The notes under the pieces are model-generated. The model worked only from the letters and a program-made list of their open reading frames with translations. It ran no database searches and was not told the DNA's origin. Position numbers and translations under genes: made by a program. From positions 10,690 to 74,689 of the forward strand of contig CALVYT010000008.1 in NCBI GenBank assembly GCA_944372345.1: a stretch of 64,000 nt of DNA, given 5' to 3'. The first letter of the stretch is position 1. Each line of letters starts with the position of its first letter. Positions 10,524 to 55,306 of the stretch are shown in pieces. The stretch comes from an uncultured Clostridia bacterium. GTDB taxonomy: Bacteria > Bacillota > Clostridia > Christensenellales > Pumilibacteraceae.

Positions 10524-10600
<77 letters not shown>

Positions 10601-11343: not shown

Positions 11344-12401
11344 AGACTCACCCTCTCCCGATCACACGCCGCGAAACGGACGCGGAACGTACTGCCCTCT
11401 CCCGGCGAGCTTTCCACGTCTATGACGCAGCCGAGAAGATCGATCGCTTTTTTCACGAGCGCAAGTCCCAGTCCGTTACCCTCCGAAGCGTGCGACGTAT
11501 CTCCTTGATAAAACTTATCGAATATGTGCTCGCCGACGCCCTCGTTCATACCGCAGCCGCTGTCCGAGATCTCCGCGACTATCTCGCCGCCGCGCTGCGC
11601 CAGCGTGACGCGCACCATCCCGCCGCGGGGCGTGAACTTGACGGCGTTGGAGAGCAGGTTGTTCCATATGAGTTCGAGCAGTCCTTCGTCGGAGAGCGCG
11701 ACCGCGCCGTCGCACACGTCGCATTCGAGCGCGACCCCTTTTTCTTCCGCCGCGTCCTCGAACGCAATGACGCTGCGCCGCAGCGACTCGCCTATGTCCG
11801 TCGGTCTGAACTCGGGCGGCGGCTGGTGCTCCATACGGTTGAGCCGCAGGATATTCGTCGTCAGCGACGACAGGCGCGACGCGGTTTCGGCAAGCGTGCG
11901 CGCGTAAGAGCGCGTTTCCTCATCCGTCAGTCTGCCGTCGGCGATCGCGTAGGCGTAGGTGCATATCACGGAAAGCGGGGTCTTGAACTCGTGGGACACA
12001 TTGGAGATAAAATCCTTGTTGAGCACGCTCGTTTTGCCCAGCTCTTCCGCCATCGCGTTGACGTTGTCCATTATCTCGCCGTAACCGTTATACGCTTCGA
12101 GAGCGCGCGCGGGCGCTATCCTGACGGAAAAGTCCCCCGCCGCTATGCGTTCCGTGGCGTCCGTTATCTTCCTGACGGGCAATCCCGTCATATACCTGCG
12201 GCGGAGCGCGTCGAGAGCGGTCAGCAGTCCCGCCAGCGCGCATATGACCGCGATTATCACCAATGCAATGACCGCGCGGCTGTCCGTCGCCTCGCTCACC
12301 TTGTCGTATACCAGCACCGCGACCATTATTATGACCGCCGTCATCAAAAACCACAGCATATATTCGGCGAAAACGACGCTCCGCCTTCCCGCCCGCTTCA
12401 T
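11340..12401 (-). CDS. sensor histidine kinase (HAMP plus HisKA/HATPase)
   Basis: H-box SHEFKTPLSVI, N-box NLLSNAVKFTPRGG, G-box DSGCGM, with two N-terminal TM spans. Confidence 0.9.
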   Translation of the reverse strand: MKRAGRRSVVFAEYMLWFLMTAVIIMVAVLVYDKVSEATDSRAVIALVIIAVICALAGLLTALDALRRRYMTGLPVRKITDATERIAAGDFSVRIAPARALEAYNGYGEIMDNVNAMAEELGKTSVLNKDFISNVSHEFKTPLSVICTYAYAIADGRLTDEETRSYARTLAETASRLSSLTTNILRLNRMEHQPPPEFRPTDIGESLRRSVIAFEDAAEEKGVALECDVCDGAVALSDEGLLELIWNNLLSNAVKFTPRGGMVRVTLAQRGGEIVAEISDSGCGMNEGVGEHIFDKFYQGDTSHASEGNGLGLALVKKAIDLLGCVIDVESSPGEGSTFRVRFAACDRERVSL

Positions 12402-25373: not shown

Positions 25374-26095
25374 CCTGCGGTCCTGGCGGACGGCGAAATG
25401 ACAAAACCGGTGATTGAACAGGCTTTGCCTGTACCGCAGACGCTCACTTCGCCCCACCGCAAGGCGGTCCTGGCGGACGGTGAAATAACGAAACCGGCGA
25501 TTAAACAGGCTTTGCCTGTACCGCAGACGCTCACTTCGCCCCGCCGCCAGGCGGGTCCTTGCGGACGGCGGGGTGAACAGACTGACGATGAAACAAGCAT
25601 TGTCCGTACCGCAAAAACTCACACTTCGCCCCACCGCAAGGTGGCCCCGCCGCCAGGCGGGTCCTGGCGGAGTCCTTGCGGACGGCAAATGACAGACTGA
25701 CGATGAAACAAGCATTGTCCGTACCGCAAAAGGCTCACACTTCGCCCCGCTGCCAGGCGGTCCTGGCGGACGGCAAATGACAGACTGACGATGAAACAAG
25801 CATTGTCCGTACCGCAAAAACTCACACTTCGCCCCACCGCAAGGGTCCTTGCGGACGGCGGGGTGAACGGACTGACGATTGAACAAGCCTTGTCCGTACC
25901 GCAAAAGCTTACACTTCGCTCCGCCGCCAGGCGGCCCCGCCGCCAGACGGTCCTTGCGGACGGCGGGGTGAACGGACTGACGATGAAACAAGCCTTGTCC
26001 GTACCGCAAAAACTCACACTTCGCTCCGCCGCCAGGCGGCCCCACCGCAAGGTGGCTCCGCCGCCAGGCGGTCCCGACGGAGAGCAGTCCTGACA
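25374..26095. repeat. tandem array of 7 units of 85-121 bp, non-coding, hairpin-rich
   Basis: Units start near 25381, 25468, 25556, 25673, 25761, 25846 and 25951. See the finding for details. Confidence 0.9.
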
Positions 26096-28890: not shown

Positions 28891-28930
28891 CGTGTTTTCA
28901 AATATCGATATTGTATTTTCCGCCACACGG

Positions 28931-29112
28931 GCATACACAACGCCGAGGCGTGAACGCCCGCTCGGCACACGTTATCCGCGCGGTCATACGCAACGCCGAG
29001 GCGGGAACGCCCGCTCGGTATCCGTTCTCCGCGCGGTCATACGCAACGCCGCACAGCGTTTCGGGTGCGATCCGCCGCACACTTCTCCTCGCTTATCCGT
29101 TCTCCGCGCGTT
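28931..29112. repeat. tandem 53-54 bp repeat, about 2.5 copies
   Basis: CATAC(A/G)CAACGCCGAGGCG(T/G)GAACGCCCGCTCGG...CCGCGCGGT at 28931 and 28985, with a partial copy from 29038. Confidence 0.75.
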
Positions 29113-53334: not shown

Positions 53335-53859
53335 ATGGAAAAGATAACGGAATACTACATTCGCCGCGCTTCCGAAGAGGACGCGACGGAGATACAGATA
53401 ATAATGCACGCGGCGTTCTCGGGATATCTCGAGGACATCGGCAATACTTACAAGCTGCACGCGCTCACCGAGAGCACGGACGACATCATATCCGATATAC
53501 GCGATCACGCGGTATTCGTTGCGATCACGCCCGACGGCAGCGTGATAGGCTCTATCCGTATCAAGAAACTCACTGACGACCTCGCCTATATCTACCGCTT
53601 CGGAGTACACCCCTCGATGAAAAACGCGGGCGTGGGCAGCCGCCTGCTCGCCGCCGCCATCGACTACTGCGTGGGCTGCCGCGTCAAAGCCGTCGCTCTG
53701 CACACGAACACCAAGTTCTTTACGCTCGTGCGCTACTACTACGGCAAACGCTTCTTCGTGCATTCCACCGCCACCGATAAGGGATATATCCGCGCCCTGT
53801 TCGTCAAAGAACTCTCCGCCGACCATAATTACGACATAACCCCCGCTTTTCGGGAGTAA
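53335..53859 (+). CDS. GNAT-family N-acetyltransferase (last gene of the arg cluster)
   Basis: 174 aa with acetyl-CoA motif A, RFGVHPSMKNAGVGSRLL. Confidence 0.8.
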   Translation: MEKITEYYIRRASEEDATEIQIIMHAAFSGYLEDIGNTYKLHALTESTDDIISDIRDHAVFVAITPDGSVIGSIRIKKLTDDLAYIYRFGVHPSMKNAGVGSRLLAAAIDYCVGCRVKAVALHTNTKFFTLVRYYYGKRFFVHSTATDKGYIRALFVKELSADHNYDITPAFRE

Positions 53860-53866
53860 GTGTTTT

Positions 53867-53906
53867 GCGGGGAAAACCTTTCCTTGTAAGGAAAGGTTTT
53901 CCCCGC
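53867..53906 (+). terminator. 18-bp hairpin after the GNAT gene
   Basis: GCGGGGAAAACCTTTCCTT-GTA-AGGAAAGGTTTTCCCCGC, with no T-run. Confidence 0.55.
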
Positions 53907-53931
53907 GCCCCTTTCCCAAGGAACTTAAAAT

Positions 53932-54162
53932 CTCTTCGGTTGCGCCTGCGGCGCTAACCGTTTCACGCGCCTGCGCGATCTTTTTGCGAATCTGCGGCGG
54001 TTTCGGGTCGGCGCAGGGTATCATTGCGCCGACCGCTTCCGCGTCCGCTCGCTCCGAGAACCGCCGCATTCACTACAAAAATCTCTGCGCATTCGCTGCG
54101 AATTCTGTAATTCGGCAAACTACTCTCCCGCAGAAATAAGATGCGCACGGCGAGCCGTGCGC
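53932..54162. repeat. left arm of a roughly 230-bp imperfect inverted repeat
   Basis: It aligns block-wise with the reverse complement of 54389-54620 and ends in the palindrome GCGCACGGCGAGCCGTGCGC. Confidence 0.8.
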
Positions 54163-54388
54163 GATTCTTTATTTGAGTTTCAAGCATTGCGGTATAAGAG
54201 GCAAGTTTATTCTGTTTGCCACCCCGCGAAAATAGCGAGGGCGGAAAAGACTACGCTTGCTCCGCTCACGCCCCGTTTGCCCTGCGGCGTTCAAATATAG
54301 CTTTTCTCCGCAAACACCGTTGCGCCCGTAACGGCAAAGCACACTTGCCCTTTCCGGCAAGCGTGCCCATTTTTACGATAATACTTTC

Positions 54389-54620
54389 GCGCACGGCTCG
54401 CCGTGCGCGTCTTATTCCTGCGTGAAACCTGCTTGTCGTTTGGCAGAATTCGCAGCGAATGCGAGCGTATTTCGGCAGGGAATGGCACGTTTTCGGAGCG
54501 AGCGGAGGCGGAAGCGGTCACGGCTGGGTGACCCCGCCGTGACCCGAAAACGTGACAGGTTCGCCGAAAGCCGCCGCAGGCGCGCCATAAGGGAAGCGCG
54601 CGGAGCGCGCAACCGAAGAG
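54389..54620. repeat. right arm of the inverted repeat (overlaps the 3' end of cwlD)
   Basis: It starts with GCGCACGGCTCGCCGTGCGC and ends with GCGCAACCGAAGAG, the reverse complement of the left-arm start CTCTTCGGTTGCGC. Confidence 0.8.
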
Positions 54621-55306
54621 TCCCATTCAAGCAGGGCGACTATGCCGGAATATACGGCATAGGCGACCTTACGCTGGTATTCGGGCGTAACGAGCAAAGA
54701 TTCCTCGCGGGCATTGGACATAAATCCGCACTCGACGAGCACCCCGGGATACGGCGTGCAGCCGAGTATGTAATAGTCCGCGCTTTTTGCCGCCCTGTCG
54801 CAGCCGAGCGCGGCGTTGAGTACGTTCTGCATACGTTCCGCGTAGTCCGCGCTCGTTTCCGCTCCCTCGAAATAGAACACCTGCGCGCCCGAAACGCTGC
54901 GCAGCGGATAATAATTCTGATGCACGCTGACGACGAGATCGGGCTGCGCCTGCTCTATTATCTCCTTTCTGCGCCGCATATCCGACTGCTTGAAACTTTC
55001 GCCGGGCGACGCGAGATCGACGTCGCTGTCGCGCGTCATCACGACCGTATACCCCGCCTCGCGCAGGAAATGCCGCAGACTGAGCGATATGCCGAGATTG
55101 ACGTCCGCCTCCTTTTTGCCCGTATCCGTACCCACCACGCCGCCGTCCGCTCCGCCGTGACCCGGATCTATGACGATAGTCATACCGTTGGACGCAACGG
55201 CGCGGACGGACGCGGAAACGCACGCCGCGGCGACGATCCCCGCCATGACCGCGACTGCGACCGCAACCGCTATAACGGATCGTTTGGAAAATACCACGAA
55301 TCTCAT
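54518..55306 (-). CDS. cwlD: N-acetylmuramoyl-L-alanine amidase, CwlD-like (Amidase_3)
   Basis: An N-terminal TM, then IVIDPGHGGADGG...EADVNL...SVHQN. The last roughly 34 codons lie inside the repeat arm. Confidence 0.85.
   Translation of the reverse strand: MRFVVFSKRSVIAVAVAVAVMAGIVAAACVSASVRAVASNGMTIVIDPGHGGADGGVVGTDTGKKEADVNLGISLSLRHFLREAGYTVVMTRDSDVDLASPGESFKQSDMRRRKEIIEQAQPDLVVSVHQNYYPLRSVSGAQVFYFEGAETSADYAERMQNVLNAALGCDRAAKSADYYILGCTPYPGVLVECGFMSNAREESLLVTPEYQRKVAYAVYSGIVALLEWDSSVARSARFPYGAPAAAFGEPVTFSGHGGVTQP

Follow-up and report, generated by a model that had tools for sequence, protein, structure and literature searches.

Enterobacterial BIMEs are spacer mosaics of alternating palindromic units and short motifs, the composition of which varies between strains; their palindromic units, about 35-40 nt in size, are binding sites for IHF, gyrase or Pol I. 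The BOX repeats of Streptococcus pneumoniae are dispersed in more than 100 copies. They are modular (boxA-boxB(n)-boxC), with a variable number of internal units (PMC3184786), and the same species carries SPRITE, a terminator-like repeat located at convergent 3' ends (PMC3184786, PMC3116915). REPINs are inverted doublets that form hairpins in single-stranded DNA or mRNA, and two-sided compensatory changes are common in them (PMC3116915). In bcr1, a repeat of about 155 bp from the Bacillus cereus group that resembles a MITE (a miniature transposable element with inverted repeats), compensatory changes keep the structure and the occupied sites vary between close strains (PMC3184786). Here we describe a 690-bp non-coding element (positions 53932 to 54620) in a 64,000-nucleotide stretch of contig CALVYT010000008.1, the whole of which we call the window, from an uncultured species of gut Clostridia near Candidatus Protoclostridium. 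The element fills the spacer between a cwlD-like amidase gene and the convergent argD-argF-GNAT genes, and it is a strain-variable cassette of two diverged inverted copies (arms) of a structured non-coding unit, called unit A below. The reading that we favour, and to which we give about even probability, is that the spacer is hypervariable and assembled from repeats, that the 690 bp are one of its haplotypes, and that a structured repeat was doubled there by inverted duplication and probably serves as a module at gene 3' ends.

The element resembles the known structured intergenic repeats but is a member of none of the families compared; it is new and narrowly distributed. With bcr1 the arm shares an intergenic position in Firmicutes, variability between strains and a predicted structure maintained by compensation, a likeness of features for which no sequence similarity was established. 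Unlike bcr1, which has many copies and 5-bp flanking direct repeats, the arm is 233 nt long, has local copies and lacks a flanking duplication. Because neither a target-site duplication nor a clean empty site was found, we did not class the element with the MITEs. Like a REPIN, the arm pair is an inverted doublet in which the hairpin is kept by compensatory changes; however, REPINs are doublets of REP sequences of about 70-110 nt that have invariant 16-mers, are mobilised by RAYT and number hundreds per genome, whereas each 233-nt unit described here is itself a hairpin, the pair spans 690 bp, and two copies are present in 64 kb. Unit size and copy number therefore argue against membership in the REPINs. 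The arm and BOX are alike in being intergenic, hairpin-forming and capable of fusion to open reading frames (ORFs), and there is a BOX-like modularity in that the 5' and 3' parts of the arm enclose zero or one 83-nt unit, which makes tandem arrays of seven to eight units elsewhere. The modules of BOX and the arm are nevertheless unrelated in sequence, and the arrays are not flanked by arm halves. SPRITE is a dispersed multi-copy family, and the arm units are larger and more complex. As in the BIMEs, the spacer is a strain-variable mosaic of palindromic modules, but the modules here range from 40 to 310 nt and come from unrelated families.

The first-pass annotation of the window had proposed two inverted arms at this site. 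A repeat search and blastn confirmed them and refined their ends to 53932-54164 for the left arm (plus strand, 233 nt, the L type of unit A) and 54387-54620 for the right arm (minus strand, 234 nt, the R type); the gap between them, previously put at 226 bp, is 222 bp long (54165-54386) and constitutes a non-coding centre, C. When one arm was compared by blastn with the 64-kb window, the other matched it over the full length with 75.4% identity (E=6e-38), and no third copy was detected in the window by blastn, nhmmer or a covariance model. The repeat search returned three collinear inverted pairs (53951-54061/54489-54599, 54067-54164/54387-54484 and 53932-53954/54598-54620). The alignment bore out the block-wise identity noted earlier, and the blocks include the palindromes GCGCACGGC..GCCGTGCGC and ATTCGC-T-GCGAAT. 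The same arrangement, with an identical left arm, was found at 99.3-99.7% identity in an independent metagenome assembly (L047), and thus it is not an assembly artefact. Gene callers placed no gene in the 690-bp element, and the possibility that the arms encode protein was rejected, as the reading frames break between the two arms and are not conserved.

Each arm alone folds into a small 5' hairpin, a bulged hairpin of about 135 nt, a short palindrome and a terminal GC-rich hairpin. The predicted 5' hairpin of the left arm, GCGCC-TGC-GGCGC, lies on the plus strand at 53942-53954, and that of the right arm on the minus strand at 54596-54610; the predicted pairs are kept in seven copies, and the loop alone varies (TCC/GAA/TTC/TGC). 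The long hairpin, placed by the folds, by covariation and by a covariance model (R1), occupies 53966-54100 in the left arm (plus strand) and 54451-54584 in the right arm (minus strand). On the 3' side of this hairpin is an asymmetric loop of 17-19 nt, which corresponds to the conserved block GACCGCTTCCGC(G/C)TCCGCTCGCTCCGA; the asymmetric conserved 3'-side block extends over 54031-54057 in the left arm (plus strand, GACCGCTTCCGCGTCCGCTCGCTCCGA) and 54493-54519 in the right arm (minus strand). Eight bases, AAAACGTG (54486-54493, minus strand), close the long stem of the right arm, and an 83-nt unit is found there instead in L047, L048 and L003. The small palindrome ATTCGC-T-GCGAAT (54091-54103, plus strand; 54448-54460 in the right arm, minus strand) is unchanged in every DNA copy seen. 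At the inner end of each arm is the GC-rich hairpin, GCGCACGGC-GA-GCCGTGCGC at 54143-54162 in the left arm and its counterpart at 54389-54408 (minus strand) in the right arm; a consensus scan flagged the inner-end hairpin as resembling an intrinsic terminator on both the plus and the minus strand. Model R1 scored the left arm at 161 bits and the right arm at 145 bits.

A hairpin with different but compensated stems in the two arms had been reported at 54006-54034 (plus strand) and 54516-54544 (minus strand). It is real, and it is merely the tip of the hairpin of about 135 nt, which covaries throughout. In an RNAalifold consensus of the two arms with 64 pairs, 11 two-sided and four one-sided changes were accommodated and no pair was broken, and the changed pairs were spread across five separate stem segments. 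A consensus fold favours compensated pairs, and hence the test was repeated with the minimum free energy structure of one arm mapped onto the other. In this test 11 of the 14-15 doubly changed pairs remained canonical in the other arm, whereas 2000 shuffles of the substitutions gave 2 on average and 7-8 at most, and the result was stable with either arm as the reference and on either strand. Further stem and loop variants were found in L134 and in the L048 copy A2, and a third tip stem was deduced from an ORF, P0140. Between copies, the fold rather than the sequence is kept. In a hypothetical full-length transcript, pairing of arm with arm would be favoured (-400 versus -282 kcal/mol); nevertheless, because the compensation occurs within arms, the arm-to-arm duplex is not the conserved structure, and pairing between arms was rejected as the selected one.

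The alternatives to the reading that we favour are, by weight, a structured RNA gene or product of a 3' untranslated region (UTR), a neutral relic, a MITE with long terminal repeats and an invertible switch, and the covariation bears directly on the first two. Each arm could be the gene for, or the processed 3'-UTR product of, a regulatory RNA of about 230 nt, with two paralogues made convergently and ending at the inner hairpins. Covariation in five stem segments, together with an asymmetric 27-nt loop of conserved sequence such as binding sites typically have, would be explained in this way, as would the terminator-like hairpin that closes each unit and the placement of the units in sense after both cwlD and GNAT; an R-type G.U pair at the stem base and a single U.G variant in L048 A2 also fit the sense strand. 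We nonetheless consider an RNA of either kind unlikely. There is neither conserved sequence nor a promoter-like site upstream of the unit, and a consensus scan detected no sigma-70-like site in the centre (54165-54386) and no promoter-like site in or beside the element, so the earlier suggestion of convergent or divergent independent RNA genes gained no promoter support. Some strains of the species, and every related species searched, lack the element, the 83-nt insert substitutes for one strand of the long stem in several strains, the "conserved" loop has about five differences in L134, and the opposite strand folds at least equally well. No match was found in Rfam: in Rfam 15 the sole match in the window at the gathering threshold was a tRNA at 10524, a permissive scan of 53700-54900 gave at best 24 bits against a 90-bit threshold, and there were no matches in the L048 region and nothing relevant in the tandem array described below.

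The second alternative attributes the arms to a fold-back (template-switch) inverted duplication that has since decayed, with hairpin-templated repair re-perfecting the quasi-palindromes without any selected function. The region is dense in other palindromes (the H, C, Y and 87-nt units described below), likewise with "compensated" stems; L048 A2 has a new local palindrome, GAATGCGCATTC, at a broken ancestral stem; the short forms of the arm have 8-10 nt that perfectly match the opposite strand at the insert site of other copies; and some strains do without the element. Such an account is improbable in our view, since compensation is present at five separated stem segments with 0 of 64 pairs broken despite 25% divergence, and since invariant unpaired blocks of 27 nt and 20 nt at 75% overall identity argue for constraint beyond palindrome repair. 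Copies that are 75% identical and differ by 11 compensatory pairs amount to a natural experiment that could be used to set selection on RNA against selection on hairpin DNA and against templated repair.

Comparison of contigs distinguished at least five haplotypes of the spacer (window/L047, L048, L134, L131/L130/L046 and L129). The window haplotype consists of cwlD, the inverted arm pair around the 222-bp centre and then GNAT, and that of L047 is the same except that its right arm has an 83-bp insert in place of the 8 nt at 54486-54493. In L048, cwlD is followed by a long-form arm, a C-like segment and a second arm in direct orientation, with pyrophosphatase and amino oxidase genes downstream. 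The arm in L134, L132 and L133 is of the R type for 25 nt and then of the L type, with an altered loop block and tip loop, and these contigs terminate within the arm. L131, L130 and L046 have no arm; in L131, where cwlD and GNAT are contiguous on one contig, the spacer contains three repeats of about 15 nt, three H modules (a separate hairpin repeat), a C-like hairpin and a fourth H module, and L129 has a shortened form of this arrangement. Pieces of the window's centre recur in L131 and, in both orientations, in L048, and the hairpin at 54339-54366 of the centre is present in arm-less strains too. The outer 55 nt or so on each side of the centre have weak inverted symmetry (score -2 versus a null of -19 ± 5). 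Several families of hairpin repeat make up the locus, and their mosaic changes from strain to strain.

On the cwlD side, the window and L131 share 66 identical bases before their homology ends at 54620; on the GNAT side it restarts at 53929, these breakpoints being the two outer ends of the arms. Between the same breakpoints L131 carries 507 bp that are absent from the window and consist of other hairpin repeats rather than a clean empty site. Presence/absence polymorphism with breakpoints placed so exactly would be expected if the 690 bp were a single MITE-like non-autonomous transposon with 233-bp terminal inverted repeats, inserted at the cwlD 3' end by a transposase encoded elsewhere. The inverted terminal arms, the lack of a credible ORF and the several metagenome contigs that end within an arm, as assemblies do at repeats, are also in keeping with a transposon, and MITE repeats are known to extend gene 3' ends (PMC3184786). 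We consider this origin quite unlikely, and the MITE-like element envisaged in the first-pass annotation was not supported by the comparison. No target-site duplication was found around the 690 bp: the outer flanks are TTAAAAT and TCCCATT, the boundaries read ...CTTAAAAT followed by the arm and the arm followed by TCCCATTC, and there is no direct repeat at any plausible boundary. The 507 bp in the arm-less strain make the event a replacement, not an insertion, and the unit occurs singly next to cwlD in L134 and as two direct copies in L048. Moreover, arms that are merely 75% identical, with differences compensated within the arm, are unlike shared transposase-binding ends, and neither the 64 kb nor 1.5 Mb of related loci yielded a further copy in the searches described below, in which pattern scans gave nothing in GTDB genomes and viral contigs, and chance 21-mers alone in JGI metagenomes. 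No transposase, recombinase or RAYT gene was present among the genes called within 10 kb on either side of the element.

The other haplotypes also bear on an invertible DNA switch, in which recombination between the arms would flip the centre plus the arm joined to cwlD and thereby alter the CwlD C-terminus and convergent read-through. Inverted repeats do bound a short segment here, and the L134-type arm, R for 25 nt and then L and giving the CwlD end VAREAR*, fits a crossover close to the outer ends of the arms. Relative to cwlD, a module made up of an L-type arm and the left half of C has the opposite orientation in L048, and interleaved inverted repeats (the pairs C1/C2 and Y/Y') suggest past inversions. 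A switch of this kind is all the same very unlikely: the window's own centre was never seen flipped in any contig, the L134 arm differs by about 9% from the window's left arm and so does not represent a simple flip of the window allele, homologous inversion would be inefficient at 75% identity, and there is neither a site-specific recombinase gene within 10 kb on either side nor a promoter-like site in the centre. The Y pair of L048 (11279-11436 / 11941-12098) is a 158-nt inverted repeat that is 86-90% complementary and flanks the second arm; its interleaving with the C-like inverted pair suggests successive inversions or fold-back duplications. L048 A2 is composed of alternating L and R segments, and such fine-scale L/R mosaic copies are a signature of gene conversion. 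At 11436-11470 of L048, and in residues 55-75 of the predicted protein P0138, we noted a head-to-tail junction in which a terminator-like hairpin, GCGCGCGGCGAGCCGTGC, is fused to the arm start, CTTTCGGTTGCGC; such a junction is what one would expect from either tandem duplication or a circular intermediate.

The arm family is real but narrow. No arm copy was found by nhmmer or covariance model R1 in about 1.5 Mb of cwlD-region loci from more than 80 Clostridia, and blastn gave no arm match in plasmids or phages, so that no parent insertion sequence was seen there. Exact-pattern scans with the conserved block gave no match in GTDB genomes; as this pattern occurs twice in the window, the host species is evidently not among the GTDB representatives. 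Scans of viral contigs with three conserved blocks gave no match either, and those of JGI metagenomes gave 35, all of them 21-32-mers matched by chance, with no extension into the arm, although the block used for exact scans varies in L134 and these scans can therefore miss copies. A HMMER scan with a 111-aa spurious ORF over the right arm recovered three further ORFs in which arm-like sequence is encoded in different surroundings. P0138/P0139 derives from a 39-kb ENA contig and P0135 from a 1-kb contig, and the peptide PPWGHPMAA of P0140, obtained in the profile search, implies a third tip stem, GCCGCCATGGGG/CCCCATGGCGGC. The repeat family suggested in the first-pass annotation is thus upheld as regards two inverted structured copies with variants in other strains and contigs, but not as regards dispersed copies, none of which was present in the sequence searched.

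We also examined the end of the cwlD-like gene, which is encoded on the minus strand (54518-55306, 262 aa). Pfam Amidase_3 covers residues 44-222 of the protein, and the best match was TIGR02883 spore_cwlD (residues 43-223), at 180 bits against a cut-off of 221.55; since the score is below the curated equivalog cut-off, "cwlD-like" is the appropriate wording. The nearest GTDB representatives by CwlD are Candidatus Protoclostridium stercorigallinarum and Bacillota/Clostridia metagenome-assembled genomes (72-77% identity), and an exact look-up of the window CwlD and of P0131, which is shorter at the N-terminus and otherwise identical, retrieved no record. As had been claimed, the catalytic domain ends before the arm and the right arm supplies the end of the protein, namely 33 residues (about 230-262) and the stop (54518-54620), with the ORF entering the arm at about codon 230. 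The closest proteins in other species (58-81% identity) are 229-242 aa long, lack the tail and end 2-13 residues past a shared -LL motif, and in strains of the same species without the arm CwlD ends ...EWDADGS*. Within the 90% cluster around the window CwlD, the variants are 95-100% identical through ...LLEWD and then diverge into three endings, the long tail, "SSVAREAR*" and "ADGS*" / "PAAGS*". The comparison of C-termini thus supports the proposal that the gene end was remodelled. At the syntenic loci of related species, cwlD is followed by an unrelated spacer of about 120-230 bp that has no arm-like sequence. Because the orthologues and the arm-less strains have no tail, the tail is not ancestral coding sequence, which excludes the scenario of an ancestral tail with a left arm decayed from a duplicate of the cwlD 3' end. 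We infer that the ORF gained its 33-residue tail incidentally, by reading on into the repeat.

Taken as a hypervariable spacer built from repeats, the locus would have acquired its arm pair by inverted duplication, and inversion together with patchy gene conversion among hairpin modules would reshuffle the arms; cut-and-paste transposition is an unlikely route to the pair. Several features suggest an origin by duplication, inversion and conversion: no target-site duplication is present, the site in the arm-less strain holds other sequence instead of being empty, arms occur singly and as direct copies, some copies are mosaics, and inverted repeats are interleaved. If unit A has a role, it would be that of a 3'-end and terminator module for two converging transcription units, where a stable 3' structure and terminator would end and insulate the converging cwlD and GNAT transcripts. 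Such a role is indicated by the terminator-like inner hairpins and by the orientation of the units: a unit follows cwlD in sense in the window, L047, L048 and L134, and GNAT in the first two of these. On these sequence features unit A would most likely act as a 3'-end module.

Several observations weigh against this interpretation. The roles in termination and at transcript ends were deduced solely from sequence, the U-tail of the right-arm hairpin is poor on the cwlD strand, and the GNAT gene already has a strong hairpin of its own upstream of the left arm. In both orientations some pairs are G.U-only, and the opposite strand folds no worse, so that neither strand is favoured. The compensatory changes could stem from hairpin-templated repair instead of selection. 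Haplotype breakpoints that fall exactly at the outer arm ends are what a discrete mobile unit would show; the copy search spans the 64-kb window and 1.5 Mb of related loci, and the ORFs P0135, P0138 and P0140 indicate arm copies in other sequence contexts.

If the hypervariable-spacer reading is nonetheless true, the locus would be a well-documented case in which a convergent-gene spacer is rebuilt within a species from structured repeat modules, with a spore-cortex amidase gaining or losing a 33-residue tail and the terminators of two transcription units being replaced. Repeats of this type break metagenome assemblies (four contigs end in an arm) and inflate ORF predictions. The locus opens no long-standing question, its taxonomic reach appears narrow, and its nature is likely ordinary for bacterial genomes.

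Other repeat families surround the element. The H module (53867-53931, plus strand), a family distinct from the arm, has a single copy in the window, where it separates the stop codon of GNAT from the left arm and marks the outer limit of that arm, and consists of a perfect 19-bp hairpin (53867-53906) and the conserved tail CCCCTTTCCCAAGGAACTTAAAAT. Across copies it takes the form of a perfect hairpin of about 37 nt followed by the tail CCCTTTCCnAGrAACTTAAA and, in some copies, by a TTTTATAAT box. In addition to the window copy there are four copies in the arm-less L131 (2475-2990), one at L008 140-218 and one at L009 20-98. The H stems differ by compensatory changes, and in a related species H is present at another locus.

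According to blastn breakpoints and alignments, the 83-nt unit in the arms of L047, L048 and L003 is a member of the 87-nt tandem-repeat family found at 25377-26081 of the window. This non-coding array, situated between the pyruvate:ferredoxin oxidoreductase and MarR-family genes, contains seven to eight tandem repeats with a period of 87-105 nt, and its units form hairpins with the compensatory variants ACAAG/CTTGT and ACAGGC/GCCTGT. A second array of the family is at the end of L048 (14600-14804). One could envisage that the arm founds a new class of hairpin element, either an RNA of about 230 nt with a protein-binding asymmetric loop or a transposase-less hairpin DNA, which accepts single units of the 87-nt family right after GCTCGCTCCG in the loop. 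We think this quite improbable; if true, gene ends and terminators would be remodelled between strains by a site-specific interaction of two repeat families.

A few additional features were recorded. In related species (L001 10714-10780 and L008 4737-4800), cwlD and the convergent GNAT gene share one bidirectional terminator, GAAATAAG-CCGCaCCGCCC-GGAAA-GGGCGGcGCGG-CTTAT. The A-rich stretch leading into it, GCGGAAATAAG, is similar to the lead-in of the arm's terminal hairpin, GCAGAAATAAGA, which could reflect homology or chance. A replication-terminus or GC-skew feature was also considered for the locus and rejected, as there is no skew inflection. Directly downstream of the pyrophosphatase gene in L048 (12109-12198) are two direct repeats of about 63 nt with the hairpin ATATGCCTTCCC...GGGAAGGCATAT, an additional hairpin-repeat family in the host species. 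Finally, Tandem Repeats Finder reported a tandem repeat with a period of 53 (2.3 copies, 90% matches) at 28928-29051 of the window.

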